Source: Escherichia coli | GTDB taxonomy: Bacteria; Pseudomonadota; Gammaproteobacteria; Enterobacterales; Enterobacteriaceae | NCBI RefSeq assembly: GCF_011045215.1 | Contig: NZ_CP049202.1 | Reading direction: 5' to 3' (one strand) | Length of the DNA: 64,000 bases | Part shown: in pieces, positions 1-9,000 of the stretch | How positions within the stretch are numbered: position 1 is the first letter of the stretch | Layout of the letters: each line of letters starts with the position of its first letter | Position numbers: made by a program

Positions 1-3000
1 GTCGTCCCACAATACGGCCTTCCGGAAGATGAACCCTCTCCGGGACCGGAACAGAAAAAGAGATGCCGGCACGACCTGCCAGCGGCAAAAGCCGCCATTC
101 CGGCTGGCTGCGGTACTGTCCGGGCGTCACGCCGGCTGTTTTCCTGAATTCACGGTTAAATGTCTGCTGGGAATCAAATCCCAGACTACAGGCAATATCC
201 TGAAACCCACGTAACGACAGGCGACAGAGCAGGGCAGCCCGACTCAGTCGCCTGCGACGAATATATTCGCCCAGCCGCATTCCCGTCTCCAGCAGAAAAA
301 TACGCTGCAGATGTCTGCGGCAGTAACCGGAATAAGCACTCAGTGAATGAATGCTCATCCGTTTACCACTTTCAAGATGAAGTTCGATATATTCGATAAT
401 CCTGTCAATGGTCATTTTCCGTATCAGCGCCGTCCCTGTCTTTTTATCATTCATGTTGTTTTTCTGATTTCACATCATGTTTTCAGACCAAAAGAAAATG
501 ACACCCCTCTGACTCCCCCGTTCCCCTTTATGAAGCCCGGCCCGGCACGCAGAGAGAAAACATGACCACCAACACAGAAGGGAATACTGAACAACAGTTG
601 CGTCTCATTCACCAGACTGAATCCCAGGTCTTCTTTCCAGCCCGGACCGTAAAAACCTCCGGTATTGTTTTCCACAATGACATCACTTCCGCGCCCCATC
701 ACACGGAACACATCCCGGAACGTATAAGTCATCCTGACGGAATAACTTCCCGCGTGCGAACCAATATCATGACGGGATGATGAGAATTCACGCAGGGATA
801 AAAATGAGAGACCCGGACTCAGGGTAAAATTACCGGACGTTATCGTACTGCTGATTTCGGGGGAAACAATCAGGGCATTTTTTCGCTCCCACCCCAGCAC
901 CTCTTCATAATTTTCATCACCTTCCATCCCGCGACTCATGTTGCGAACCCGGGCATATCCCACGCCCAGACCTCCCCTGACTGAAACATGTTCAGACAAC
1001 CTGACGGTGACATCTGTCCCCACAAGCGTGCCATATGACCGCCAGTGAACCACGGCACCATCATCAACATCCCCTTTCAGGTCAATATAACTTCCCCTGA
1101 GGTACACCCCGGAGCAGACCATCCCCGTGTCATACAGACATTCGCTGTGCCAGGGAACAGTCCAGCGGGAATATTTCCCCCCTCCCTCTGTCCGCAATCC
1201 GGAAGCACTGATGTCATCCGAAAAATGCATACTTAATATTCTGGCATAAGTGCCTGACAGTTCATGACTGTACCCGTAAACCGGTATGACAATACCTGCC
1301 AGAAGTAAAATGAGACGCCATGCTCCCCTGTGATGTTCCACCTGAATGTTCATAACATCCACTCCCTGCAACCCAAAACACACCCTCTCACGGACAGAAT
1401 CTGTCACGGGAGACACTGTCCCCGGCCCGGGCCCGGGACGCCAGCCCCGCAAAATCCTTCCCGGTGTAATACCCTTCCGGTACCGGAAGACGCTTCATGT
1501 CCTGTCCGGGCCAGAGCTGTAATTCCGCCAGCACCGCGGCTTCCGGTCTGAGAGGGAGCGACAGGCGCAGTGGCTTCATATCGCCCCCCGGAACAGATAC
1601 GGGAAGCCGGTCCGCATCAACATCATAATTGCGCTTTATCACCAGCCACTTGTCCGGCAGAAGACACCGGCTGTTCCACCACACCCTGTCCAGCATACGG
1701 AGCTGAAAACGGGTACGGGACACCGCGCCACCTCCCAGATGAACCAGCACCTGTTTCAGCGCATTCTGCATGGCCGTTTCATACATTCGCCTGTCTGCCG
1801 TCTGTCCGCTGAAGATAAGAGAGAGGGCCACTCTTGCCCCCAGAAGATTGGACCACAGATCCTCCGGTGAAAATGCCGACACAGTTTCAGGATAACCCGG
1901 TACGGATTCGAAGCCGTACCACTGTGCAATTTCATGCCATACCGCCAGCTGGTATGCCAGACGGGCTGATATTTCCGCGGCCAGCACATAACGGTCCCGG
2001 ACGGAAGACGGGGGAGTGAATGCCCGGAAAACCAGCCGCCGTTGTGCCAGTTCATCTCTGCCCGGAGACAACACAAACGCCTGCCCCAGACGTGGCCACA
2101 GACGGGTAAAAATAAACACCGTCATATCCGCCGTATCACGGACATGCGCCGTATCAACAAATCCCCCCTGCGTGGTGAAAATGATACCGTTATGCTCTCT
2201 TCCGCCCCCTGTCAGAGACAACATGCCGGAAACAAAACTGTCGTTGTAATGGTGTCCCCCGGTACTGCCGGCCTCCACCACATTGTCCAGATGAAAGAAT
2301 GGCAATGGTGTACGGAGCCACGGCACCCTCACCCCCAGGTCATACCCAAACGCACAGCAGGCCCGTAACCCCTCCGGGGGGGATAACGGAGGCATAACCG
2401 GCCAGGCACTCGTTGTCATTTCCTTCCCGTCCAGCCATAAAGGAAGCGGAAGTGCGGCCTGCGCCTGACAACACCATAACAACAAAAATAACAACCATTT
2501 TATTTTCTGTTGTCTGTCAGTAATATATCCCATACTGCATTATTCCGGTTATGAAATTCACTCCGCAGTAATATATGAATGCCGTTTCAGATATTACCGG
2601 ATATCAGATTTCCGTCCTGTCTTTGTCAGACAAGAAACCACTGTCTGGACAACCTGTTATTATTTTCGTCGTAATCCACCAGTCCGGCTTCATACAAAAA
2701 ATTCAGACAGATACAACACTGGCGCACAGACATATCCAGTCCGTACGCAATATCAATAACACGAAACAAGACTTCACCATATTTATCCTCCCGGAATTTC
2801 ATCCAGAGGAGCAGTGCTTCACAGTCATCCTGATATAATGCGGTATTGTCCCTGCGTTTCATGGTTTTGTCACACATAGATAATCTCCTGTGCATGCGGG
2901 AATAACATACACATTGCAACAAATATTCCACAAAGATATTAATATATTAAATTTTATTATCGTCAGCCCGGCATTATTTCTTTTTTGTGCACCCGCTGAA

Positions 3001-6000: not shown

Positions 6001-9000
6001 TCTGCTGCCTGACCGCTTCCGCGGCTATCCGGCTGTTTTCGCGACATGCCAGCATGACACTGTGCCCGGCACGCTGCATTGCAGCCATCTGAGCCAGCGC
6101 CTGCAACTCCTGACCACCAATATTGGGAGAGGATTCGGTATAAAGAATTTTCATCACCACCTCTCAGTCATCATTCAGCCGGGGCCCCTTATGAAGGGCC
6201 AGAAGCGATGAAAAAAACGGAGTGGTGTAATAAAAGAGACGGCGCTTCAGCCAGCCGGAATGTTCACGCTCCTTTGTACTGATACGCCCGATACGCCGGG
6301 GACCCGCCACCGGTGAATTCATCCGCCGCTCAGTGGTGTAGAGGTGGGTGAATCCCAGTTTCTCCGCCACCCTGATATAGTCCGGATTGTAATACCCCTC
6401 CGGCCAGCATAAATGACGACTGCATGAACCGGTCATTTGCCTCATTCGCGCCTGTCCGAGAAGAATATCGGACTCAAGAAAGACGGACGGCTCACGGACG
6501 TTATCCAGCAGATCCCAGCGACGGTGGGTATGTGTGTGCAGATGAAACTCGACCAGCCCGCTCCGGCTCATTTCCCTGACCTCAGACCAGCGCAGCATGA
6601 CATCATCAGCCCGCCCCTGTGCAATCAGGGTCTCGCATTCCCGGTGAGAAAACATATGACGCCCCCCGCTTTCTTCATGTTGCCGGGCGGGACCATCACC
6701 GATAAGCCCCGTGACAAGAAAGATATGAGCCCGGAGACCAAATGCCTGTAACACCGGAAAGGCATAAAACCAGTTATCCAGGTAGCCGTCATCAAAGGTC
6801 AGCATGACGCTTTTGCGTGGCAGTTTCCCGCCACAATAAAAGAATTCCATTTCAGCTGCCGAAACAGTTTTCCAGCCATTTTCAGCCAGCCACTGCATCT
6901 GCTCACGGAAAGTCCGGAGTGAAAGCGTCACCAGCCCTGGATTATTACTGATATGGTGATACATTAATACAGGTAAGTAATGTGCATAAAGCATTTTATG
7001 ATATAACTTAATAAAATAAGTGATTTTTAACCATCTAAAACAAATATTTTATTTATTGAAATGATTTTGCTACACGCTGTCTTGTCTTTTTATGCAAACA
7101 CCCGGCATTAAAAGTTATTTTTTCGGGAATGCTGAATGCACCTCGCATATATAGCCTTCCTAAAATAGGAGTAAAAACTTCATTTTAAAAATGAAGAGAT
7201 TTTAACTATGTCTCCAAGAGAAGGTAGTTTATCTCTTGAAACAAGAAAGGAGTCACTCACCACTGGCATGTAATACTCAAAAAAATACTCCCCCTCTTTC
7301 TGATTGTGTTTCTCTATTATTTCAATATCACCCCCATTCAATCTGTTTAATCCATAAAAACCAAGTACATTCATATATATATGGTTTATAAAGTGTATAT
7401 ATTGCTGTTTTGTTCCTGTGAATTTAAAACCAGCATAAAGACCTTTTTTTAAAGTTAAAAATGAATTATTGTCTCGAGTCTTTTCCTTCCAAACCTTACT
7501 CTCTATAATGAAATCCTCACTTCGTTTTTGCCCTTGATAAACCTCATTTGAGATAATCAGAAAGGGGAGGGAATGGGAAAGTAACTTTTCAATTCTATCC
7601 CACCTTTTGGTGGCGCAATTAATAGTATAAGGTATCATTCCTTTATAAACATACAAATCTGCGAAAATCTTTTTCATTTCACAATCGAAGTAATAAAAAT
7701 CAGGACTCTCAAACTCAGGATTAACCGTCAGAGGACCACTGATGTTATGAAACACCCACACTTTATTTTCCCTGTACTGTTTTGGTGTATATCCTGTATG
7801 CTTCTTAAATTCTCTTGTAAAAGTTTGTTGTGAGTCATAACACAATGTTGTAGATATAACTGACAACGGCAGGTTGGTCAATCGTAGAAGAACAGCGCTA
7901 CGGCTAACTCTGCGTAGTCTGATGTATTTACCCACAGGCATACCAACAAATCGTTTAAATAATAATTGTAAATTACGTCTACTATACCCAGAACGGGTAA
8001 CAAGGCTATCTATATCTATATTATAGATATCTAAATTATCTTCAATATATTGAAGAATCTCTTTTATTGTAAGAAGTCTTATCATATCTTGACCTTATAC
8101 ATCACCGGGAAGCATACGCCAGAAAGCAATTAAGCATGTTTGTGCTTTTTATTTATTGTTTTTTTGTGCACTCAACACTTTATTCTCTATATAAACCCAT
8201 GTTAAAAATGTTAAATTATATTTTGCCATAAACAATGAAGTATTTAACCCCAATAAACAAACCACTATTTACACATGATTAATCATGCAAATGGATACCA
8301 ATTTATTGAGGCTGTTACCGTGGTTAATTAACGTAATATTATTCGGTTAATTATTATTAACAGTAATGTCATATAAATATAAAATTACCATTGATAACCA
8401 ACCCCCACAGAAGCACCAAAGTCATTCTGGGTATTCCCGCCAGCATGTAATTTCGTTATCCAGTGTCCATTTTGTGATATATGAGAAACACCTACAGCAA
8501 TTGCCGATTCGCCACCATAGGTACCTGCAGATACTCCGACCAGACTTGAATCGGGCTGATAGGCCTGTGGAATTCCTGATAAAGCCATCGATGTTGCGAT
8601 ACCTGCAGTCAGTTTTGTTTTCATATCCCCCATCTTTTTATCAAGAGAATCCACCTTTCTGTCGGTATACTGTTTTAAACTGGAGAAACTTTCATTAAGC
8701 TGTCCTACAGTTACAGCATCAGATCGGTTAACTCCCGGAGCAACATTGGTTATTCTTCGCTGATTCAGTGAAGAGCCAACTGACACTGTGTTATCCTCAC
8801 TTGCTACAGAATTACTCCCGAGGGCCACGCTATTTTTTGATGAAACAGTACTTTTGTTCCCAATACCAATGCTGTTTTCTCCGGTTACATTCACATCAGC
8901 ACCAACTGCAATGGCATTATCTTTTTCTGCTCTGGCGTTACCTCCTAAAGCGATTGCATTTTTACCGGTGGCTTTAGGTTTCATTGTTTTTTCTGAGTTT

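Follow-up and report, generated by a model that had tools for sequence, protein, structure and literature searches.

Operons headed by a polysaccharide deacetylase gene (shf) and a glycosyltransferase gene (capU), known as the shf-capU-virK and ecf operons, have an established role in keeping the envelope intact, in withstanding innate immunity, and in the virulence of Shigella, enteroaggregative Escherichia coli (EAEC), and enterohemorrhagic E. coli (EHEC). The closest described systems are SfpgdA(shf)-Sfgtr4(capU)-virK-msbB2(lpxM) on the Shigella plasmid pINV and shf-capU-virK on the EAEC plasmid pAA. We analyzed a 64-kb stretch of E. coli DNA (contig NZ_CP049202.1 of assembly GCF_011045215.1; "the window" below means this whole stretch) in which the same three genes occur in the same order, likewise on a plasmid, with products that are 68%, 52%, and 47% identical to those of Shigella. 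The Shigella locus ends in lpxM/msbB2, whereas in the window virK is followed by a gene for a predicted barrel (X), a small FaeA-like open reading frame (ORF), a DUF4056 gene, a gene for a second predicted barrel (Y), and an AraC-family regulator gene. From comparison with chromosomal relatives, the locus is a shf-capU-virK head fused to an X-DUF4056 core in which Y stands in the place of an Omp85-like barrel. We put the probability at about 50% that the whole is a mobile operon for remodeling of the envelope or lipopolysaccharide (LPS), built from two fused modules, the known head and an outer-membrane tail.

The pO157 ecf1-ecf4 operon of E. coli O157:H7 shares the deacetylase-GT4 pair at its head (68% and 53% identity) and continues with enzymes of envelope lipids, but its third gene encodes a CptA-type phosphoethanolamine transferase rather than VirK, its fourth is lpxM, and it has neither barrel genes nor DUF4056. 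This operon was reportedly found to be thermoregulated by Yoon et al. in 2004. As seen on pO157 of strain EDL933 (L104, positions 3683 to 8493), the description shf-capU-virK-msbB2 fits Shigella and EAEC and not EHEC. The msbB2/lpxM companion that an earlier note on this DNA, made from the sequence alone, had linked with the trio was absent from the entire window when tblastn was run with pO157 and Shigella LpxM, and no remnants of lpxM, cptA, pagP, or an Omp85-like gene were found there. In the characterized relatives the downstream cargo always includes LPS-modifying enzymes, and CptA is itself a lipid head-group transferase. Judged by gene order, the genes downstream of the deacetylase-GT4 pair are interchangeable cargo (virK-lpxM, cptA-lpxM, or virK-X-DUF4056-Y), with X-DUF4056-Y occupying the post-virK position that lpxM holds in Shigella plasmids.

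All genes of the locus lie on the minus strand and are arranged for transcription in the order adhesin, AraC_R, shf, capU, virK, X, small ORF, DUF4056, Y, AraC_L. The features are given below in that order, with protein lengths in amino acids (aa).

8385-11912, minus strand: YadA-type adhesin, 1,175 aa, upstream of AraC_R
7180-8085, minus strand: AraC_R, Rob-like AraC regulator, 301 aa (HTH_18 and GyrI-like domains; Pfam, NCBIfam)
6164-6994, minus strand: shf, CE4 polysaccharide deacetylase, 276 aa (Pfam Polysacc_deac_1)
5057-6160, minus strand: capU, GT4 (GT-B) glycosyltransferase, 367 aa (Pfam Glyco_transf_4 and Glycos_transf_1)
4034-4975, minus strand: virK, VirK/YbjX DUF535 protein, 313 aa (Pfam DUF535)
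3075-4028, minus strand: X, Sec-exported predicted outer-membrane beta-barrel, 317 aa (no Pfam model)
3022-3052, no strand assigned: perfect 14-nucleotide (nt) inverted repeat (repeat search)
2626-2877, minus strand: small FaeA/PapI-like ORF, 83 aa, or 101 aa from a GTG at 2931 (profile-profile match)
1388-2533, minus strand: DUF4056 protein, 381 aa, with Sec signal peptide (Pfam DUF4056)
475-1353, minus strand: Y, exported predicted barrel of 292 aa; with an upstream TTG as start, the raw ORF has 325 aa (predicted fold)
2-454, minus strand: AraC_L, AraC-family regulator, N-terminal 151 codons, cut at the left edge of the window (translation, HTH_18)

The earlier note had described a single same-strand run; all of the genes it described were recovered on the minus strand, and Pfam confirmed the shf-capU-virK trio. 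Every ORF was intact, both in the window and in Escherichia fergusonii plasmids that are 97.7% identical to it. The intergenic gaps from shf to AraC_L measured, in order, 3, 81, 5, 143 to 197, 92, 34, and 20 nt, so that the short gaps reported earlier hold for most junctions (3 to 92 nt) but not for the one of 143 to 197 nt, where X and DUF4056 are separated by an AT-rich spacer of 541 nt that contains the small ORF. The uniform GC content that had also been reported was not borne out, since the main operon genes are at 51 to 57% GC, the small ORF is at 43%, and AraC_R is at 33%.

Head-tail linkage and the chromosomal operon

The exact 8.2-kb arrangement was present in 2 of 5,426 complete E. 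coli genomes and on 7 to 9 plasmids, all of them IncF-type plasmids from cattle or sheep E. coli and E. fergusonii. The order shf-capU-virK-X-DUF4056-Y recurred in a metagenome contig (L008), with gaps of 12, 5, 71, 2, and 2 nt and amino acid identities to the window of 72% (Shf), 59% (CapU), 55% (VirK), 63% (X), 61% (DUF4056), and 50% (Y). For each of the six genes, the synonymous divergence (dS) between this contig and the window was 1.5 to 3.0, which is saturated, and the ratio of nonsynonymous to synonymous divergence (dN/dS) was 0.13 to 0.23. These values indicated that the six genes have long been coinherited under purifying selection. Close relatives of the L008 type were not found in complete E. 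coli genomes or plasmids, where the head genes alone matched, at about 74% nucleotide identity.

Partial and decayed copies were found in several further genomes. On the chromosome of Escherichia sp. E4742, remnants of shf (aa 4 to 39) and virK (aa 178 to 282) lie directly upstream of X-DUF4056-Y, in which Y is frameshifted, and a contig labeled Citrobacter freundii (L007) carries a split deacetylase-GT4-X-DUF4056-Y. In E. coli contigs L009 to L011, shf-capU-virK is followed by a 407-aa X::Y fusion ORF and then by ibrA-ibrB; the fusion looks like the product of a deletion that took out DUF4056 entirely and X for the most part while keeping the frame open. In L009 the fusion ORF (about 10001 to 11224) joins some 67 N-terminal residues of X to full-length Y, and the ibrA-ibrB genes that follow are 93% identical to those of window-type plasmids. 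The chromosome of the cow isolate E. coli C311 has shf-capU-virK, a remnant of AraC_L, and a tiny C-terminal remnant of X just before pagP. This decayed island (L095, 6953 to 13156) also holds a fimbrial operon and two FaeA/PapI genes, and pagP sits there beside yxeA and IS110, an insertion sequence (IS). By their gene content, the decayed and partial copies share one ancestral gene order. Together with L008, they support the claim that the same-strand run is a conserved unit.

The tail was also found on its own. In a survey of DUF4056 that took one genome per species, 266 loci were found, and gene context was taken from the best 80. Among these, X, an Omp85-like gene, and DUF4056 stood together on one strand at 69 loci, and X-DUF4056 alone stood at 5, two of which keep a remnant of the Omp85-like gene. 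X was thus present at 74 of the 80 loci, and X and DUF4056 are an obligate pair. The genera of Enterobacterales with the operon include Salmonella, Citrobacter, Edwardsiella, Photorhabdus, Xenorhabdus, Providencia, and others, and some E. coli plasmids carry the triple as well, on segments flanked by IS66. X is the first gene of the triple in Salmonella and Edwardsiella, and the X of the window is 54% identical to that of Salmonella. Farther away, Photobacterium sp. DA100 has the full triple at 34 to 38% identity (L096, 6001 to 9294), and in the betaproteobacterium Cupriavidus sp. EM10 (L097, 5599 to 8010) an X-like barrel adjoins an Omp85-like barrel that is 44% identical, with no DUF4056 detected at that locus by tblastn. 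The X-Omp85-like pair may be older than its association with DUF4056.

Relative to this chromosomal operon, the window retains X (45 to 58% identity) and DUF4056 (45 to 57% identity) on the same strand, with X upstream of DUF4056. It differs in lacking the 16-strand-type barrel of the BamA/TamA family, in having the unrelated 12-strand Y after DUF4056, and in being fused to shf-capU-virK and regulator genes. Loss of the Omp85-like barrel is not confined to the plasmid. In Tatumella ptyseos (L028) and the Enterobacteriaceae metagenome-assembled genome UBA7338 (L032), at about 8867 to 8995, only the last 40 or so Omp85-like codons are left between X and DUF4056, and in Raoultella loci X directly adjoins DUF4056. 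The repeated loss of the Omp85-like barrel means that it can be dispensed with or replaced, as it is by Y on the plasmid. The single module proposed in the earlier note thus survives as a conserved linked unit, but because its tail is a variant of an independent and widespread three-gene operon, it is better described as two modules that have been fused. That the arrangement might be undescribed also held up: a literature search turned up no paper on it, and no description of the X family, the Y family, the X-Omp85-like-DUF4056 operon, or their fusion to shf-capU-virK was found in the literature, Pfam, NCBIfam, or the PDB. What was already known is the shf-capU-virK head and the computational assignment of DUF4056 to the Lipocone superfamily.

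Predicted products of the locus

The 381-aa protein, which the earlier note had been unable to place in any family, gave a full-length match to Pfam DUF4056 (PF13265, E = 2e-105; residues 49 to 315 against model positions 3 to 266 of 266), and it carries a Sec signal peptide (...CCQAQA|A). DUF4056 is the "CapCone-DUF4056" family of the Lipocone superfamily, and the soluble enzymes of the CapCone clade are predicted to act on phosphate-linked lipid head groups by transesterification or cleavage (Burroughs, Aravind et al., bioRxiv 10.1101/2025.01.14.632903). The motifs given for the clade are a Gly six positions ahead of the H2 His, xD four positions ahead of the same His, and S/GxxSxx preceding the H4 Asp (bioRxiv 10.1101/2025.01.14.632903); all are intact here (G124-x5-H130, V126-D127, and S219-A-F-S222-P-E-D225) and invariant in an alignment of 24 homologues. 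The family is conserved at 45 to 63% identity across genera and has no hypervariable region. The window protein is accordingly like the described family in its full-length match, its motifs, its signal peptide, and its predicted solubility, and as a predicted soluble enzyme of the periplasm or surface it would act on lipid head groups, an activity predicted for the branch as a whole. The searchable text and supplement of the Lipocone paper describe no gene neighborhood for CapCone-DUF4056, and the link to X, to the Omp85-like or Y barrels, and to shf-capU-virK is what the present analysis adds. Other DUF4056 literature was uninformative; one paper names the gene only in a Xenorhabdus figure legend. 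Sequence searches found no PDB relatives of X, Y, or DUF4056.

X, which begins 5 nt after virK, has homologues in 302 clusters (E <= 1e-5), yet the family has no Pfam model, and the only Pfam match of X is to OMP_b-brl at E = 0.18. The secretion channel FapF was the top Foldseek match. Structural models predict that both X and Y are outer-membrane beta-barrels, which agrees with part of what the earlier note said of the 317-aa protein; the other part, a possible match to the lipid A 3'-O-deacylase LpxR, was dismissed on finding no LpxR match in Pfam and no specific structural similarity to LpxR (PDB 3FID), and we consider it highly improbable that X is an enzyme of that type.

The model of Y has an N-terminal helix followed by an outer-membrane barrel of about 12 strands, the fold of an autotransporter translocator, with no passenger domain and only about 30 residues between the signal peptide and the helix. 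Y thus shares with type Va autotransporter translocators a predicted 12 strands and N-terminal helix, but it lacks a passenger and has no Pfam match, the Autotransporter model included, and its identity to its structural matches is 6 to 10%. The Y family is very rare. We also considered Y as a diverged Omp85-like barrel; this was dismissed, as there is no BLASTP similarity and about 12 strands are predicted instead of 16.

Of the head products, Shf matches Polysacc_deac_1 (PF01522, E = 1.2e-21), has visible TFDDG and HxHTH motifs, and is 68% identical to both Shigella SfPgdA and pO157 Ecf1. In NCBIfam it matches the PgaB/IcaB N-terminal domain, below cutoff, and it is predicted to be cytoplasmic because it lacks a signal peptide. 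CapU, the gene for which starts 3 nt after shf, is 52 to 53% identical to Shigella CapU and pO157 Ecf2 over 98 to 99% of its length and carries an EX7E motif (ESFGMAAVE). It had earlier been called a GT1 enzyme, which echoes the Pfam name "group 1," but its CAZy class is GT4. Its top NCBIfam matches are transferases that use uridine diphosphate-N-acetylglucosamine (GlcNAc), namely, BshA, MshA, and GlcNAc-phosphatidylglycerol synthase. VirK matches Pfam DUF535 (E = 6e-74), is 47% identical to Shigella VirK, and gave the sole PHROG match of the locus, to an unannotated family.

The phenotypes of the Shigella head genes concern the envelope (PMC7355660, PMC12562796). Without SfPgdA or SfGtr4, the bacteria become sensitive to lysozyme and neutrophils, and SfGtr4 moves a sugar onto lipid A in vitro (PMC7355660). 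VirK is a cytoplasmic protein with a GNAT-like fold; without it the outer membrane becomes more permeable and the cells more sensitive to cationic peptides. Shigella virK has its own promoter (PMC12562796). More widely, pairs of a GT4 enzyme and a deacetylase make glucosamine (GlcN)-modified, cationic lipids, and the same side-by-side logic of GT4 and de-N-acetylase is seen in gpgSDF, for GlcN-phosphatidylglycerol in Pseudomonas aeruginosa (PMC11483062), as well as in BshA/BshB and MshA/MshB. Compared with the gpgSDF-type pathways, Shf is of the CE4/PgaB type, and the third gene of the window is virK and not a flippase gene. WabH and WabN of the Klebsiella LPS core are a further pair of this kind.

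Proposed mechanism and competing explanations

In the remodeling operon that we propose, CapU and Shf would add a hexosamine to an LPS or glycolipid acceptor and de-N-acetylate it at the cytoplasmic face of the inner membrane, and VirK may reacylate the product or otherwise help. The exported DUF4056 protein would act on an outer-membrane lipid, with LPS or lipid A as the favored candidate, cleaving or transferring a head group linked through phosphate. X, as the constant partner, and Y would dock DUF4056 at the outer membrane or carry it across, as the Omp85-like barrel would in the chromosomal operon. The genes would be cotranscribed, with AraC_L and the FaeA/PapI-like protein providing local regulation. 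We also advance, tentatively and at less than even odds, the broader idea that X, DUF4056, and a third barrel (Omp85-like or Y) form an unrecognized outer-membrane machine in which a secreted Lipocone enzyme edits the head groups of LPS/lipid A or phospholipids. The plasmid placement after virK would then mark LPS as the substrate, and the locus would represent a new envelope modification pathway that is mobile on conjugative IncF plasmids.

If this were true, resistance to cationic peptides or polymyxin might be affected on plasmids of livestock E. coli and E. fergusonii; a module that alters LPS charge or structure would bear on resistance to polymyxin and host peptides carried by conjugative plasmids of ruminant Escherichia. 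The main value of the locus is that it points toward a function for an unstudied and widespread outer-membrane module: it gives the first guilt-by-association handle on the X, DUF4056, and Y families and offers a genetically tractable test case for Lipocone head-group chemistry in the Gram-negative envelope. If the two halves are functionally unrelated, the result is a useful annotation correction and nothing more.

Several observations weigh against a joint remodeling function. None of the 80 chromosomal DUF4056 loci has shf, capU, or virK, and none has Y or the AraC gene; the tail clearly does not need the head in order to work, and coregulation could be all that the fusion reflects. In this plasmid lineage the 541-nt spacer and the 14-nt palindrome may split the locus into two transcription units. 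As for the products, all NCBIfam scores of CapU are far under the curated cutoffs (74 to 96 bits versus 274 to 480), and Klebsiella pneumoniae VirK left lipid A unchanged (PMC13109725). X has no invariant histidine and is therefore probably not a hydrolase like PagL, OMPLA, or LpxR. More distant relatives of Y (28 to 35% identity) are outer-membrane proteins whose genes stand alone next to fimbrial operons, with DUF4056 absent from the vicinity, and since these relatives are solitary, Y looks like a recruited barrel. Moreover, the locus tends to decay, as several lineages show, and this suggests that its benefit is conditional.

Part of this evidence would fit two functionally independent modules that travel together, linked by shared regulation or by hitchhiking on adhesin and fimbrial islands, with the tail a self-contained outer-membrane system (for lipid homeostasis or barrel-by-barrel assembly) and the head modifying LPS or peptidoglycan as in Shigella. 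The triple that stands without the head at 69 of 80 loci does so in varied chromosomal neighborhoods, and the Cupriavidus X-Omp85-like pair lacks even DUF4056. Near-identical X occurs in only 7 of 789 capU-like plasmid records, and within the window the spacer, the small ORF, and the hairpin part X from DUF4056. Fimbrial, FaeA, and IbrAB genes, moreover, adjoin all variants. What argues for joint function instead is that the virK-X junction recurs at deep divergence and is tight (virK and X are 5 nt apart in the window and 71 nt apart in L008), that dN and dS are similar in all six genes, as expected for long coinheritance, and that the tail sits directly after virK, where Shigella has lpxM. 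We therefore regard functional independence as somewhat unlikely, if a serious contender. A chance arrangement on a mosaic plasmid, or a group of pseudogenes in decay and now without function, is by comparison hardly credible: the rarity of the exact arrangement, the IS66 elements near it in relatives, and the degradation of several related loci are in its favor, but no ORF is broken in the window or in the 97.7% identical plasmids, no IS end coincides with any internal junction, the catalytic motifs are preserved, and the synteny of L008, where order is kept at 50 to 72% amino acid identity with dN/dS of 0.13 to 0.23, largely refutes it. Transposase or phage-family hits, and a gene order absent elsewhere, had been named in the earlier note as signs that its view was wrong; PHROG and PADLOC searches gave no phage, transposase, or defense match for X, Y, or DUF4056, so that such an origin was dismissed, and the gene order exists elsewhere.

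DUF4056 could also be an exported effector or toxin directed against the membrane lipids of a competitor or host, with X, Y, or the Omp85-like protein as its translocators. Polymorphic toxin systems have toxin domains that belong to related CapCone families (bioRxiv 10.1101/2025.01.14.632903), and a DUF4056 ORF in Salmonella pathogenicity island 6 has been proposed as a candidate type VI secretion system effector (PMC11669294). The autotransporter translocator fold predicted for Y, the FapF match of X, and the membership of the chromosomal partner in the Omp85 family, which includes TpsB transporters, are in keeping with such a role, as are the virulence-type plasmids and the adhesin neighbors. 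A toxin of this kind is nevertheless unlikely in our estimate. The locus has no small immunity-like gene and no PAAR, VgrG, two-partner secretion, or other delivery domains; DUF4056 is conserved across genera, with invariant active-site columns and no hypervariable region; the operon is broadly and stably kept in entire genera, among them Photorhabdus, Xenorhabdus, Edwardsiella, and Providencia, like a housekeeping accessory function; and fusion to LPS-remodeling genes would be unexpected.

Spacer, regulators, and plasmid surroundings

The small ORF in the X-DUF4056 spacer had been called PapI-like, and at the profile level this was confirmed: against FaeA/PapI proteins of related loci, hhalign gave a probability of 97.3% (E = 1.9e-11, 67 columns), and pairwise BLASTP to a FaeA/PapI-type protein gave E = 7e-5. 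Pfam gave no match even at E <= 10, FaeA (PF04703) included. Going by these similarities, the product is probably a divergent, atypical relative of the FaeA/PapI-like winged-helix proteins. Because the ORF is missing between X and DUF4056 in L003, L007, and L008, where the two genes are only 2 to 50 nt apart (2 to 8 nt in L007 and L008), it is a lineage-specific insertion. A homologue (30 to 32% identity) lies upstream of FaeA in L003, at another place in the E4742 island, and a search of the spacer flanks for direct repeats as marks of insertion found only short ones at chance level. The inverted repeat at 3022-3052 (GATACGGCGATAAT-ATA-ATTATCGCCGTATC) lies 23 nt beyond the stop codon of X, with a 3-nt loop and no U-tract. 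Possible roles are those of a weak terminator, an RNA or processing hairpin, or an operator placed where the inserted spacer starts.

AraC_L starts 20 nt after Y, and the full gene, as seen in pCeylon31IncF, encodes 279 aa. The N-terminal helix-turn-helix reported for this regulator was confirmed, with Pfam HTH_18 at residues 39 to 116; the NCBIfam Rob/SoxS/MarA N-terminal domain fell below cutoff. Both AraC_L and AraC_R match the N-terminal double helix-turn-helix (HTH_18/HTH_AraC) of regulators of that type. A GyrI-like domain was matched by AraC_R (E = 8.5e-6), and AraC_L gave only a weak match to Cass2 (E = 3.9). Relatives of AraC_L include a 38% identical gene after Y in Escherichia sp. 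E4742, which lies farther downstream past one opposite-strand ORF, and the remnant after virK in C311, which is 54% identical. Plasmid A of E. coli C5 does not have AraC_R: its identity to the window ends at 6976, a recombination breakpoint within the first six shf codons, and upstream of shf it carries a FaeA/PapI gene and a fimbrial operon in place of AraC_R. Because it is replaced there, AraC_R is a variable neighbor outside the conserved core.

PhoP control, known for the Shigella locus, is not evident for the window, where no PhoP box was seen in the 185 nt upstream of shf and local AraC and FaeA-like regulators are found instead. Window-wide, 28 PhoP-box matches were found against 20.7 expected, which is chance level. 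A PhoP-box-like site with one mismatch at 8192-8208, upstream of AraC_R, is of a kind that occurs at chance frequency in the window. The promoter and terminator scan gave counts near those of shuffled sequence and was uninformative. In the 81-nt gap between capU and virK, at the level of a consensus scan only, there is a hairpin that resembles a terminator and has a T-run (5053-5033), along with a match to a sigma-70-like promoter (5003-4974).

Beyond the left edge of the window, relatives have AraC_L followed by ibrA-ibrB-like genes, which encode a phosphoadenosine phosphosulfate reductase and a ParB-like protein. IbrAB regulates Eib-type adhesins. On the other side, the YadA-family adhesin gene is intact and encodes a trimeric autotransporter with three near-identical repeats of about 170 aa, the repeat region reaching a GC content of 60%; its homologue in pCeylon31IncF is interrupted by an IS66 element. 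Positions 12000 to 64000 of the window are mosaic IncF-type plasmid DNA with several IS-sized ORFs, and a chaperone-usher fimbrial operon is present there (an 808-aa usher-sized ORF at 51231-53657 and its neighbors). Positions 10906 to 32900 match C5 plasmid A at 99.8% identity.

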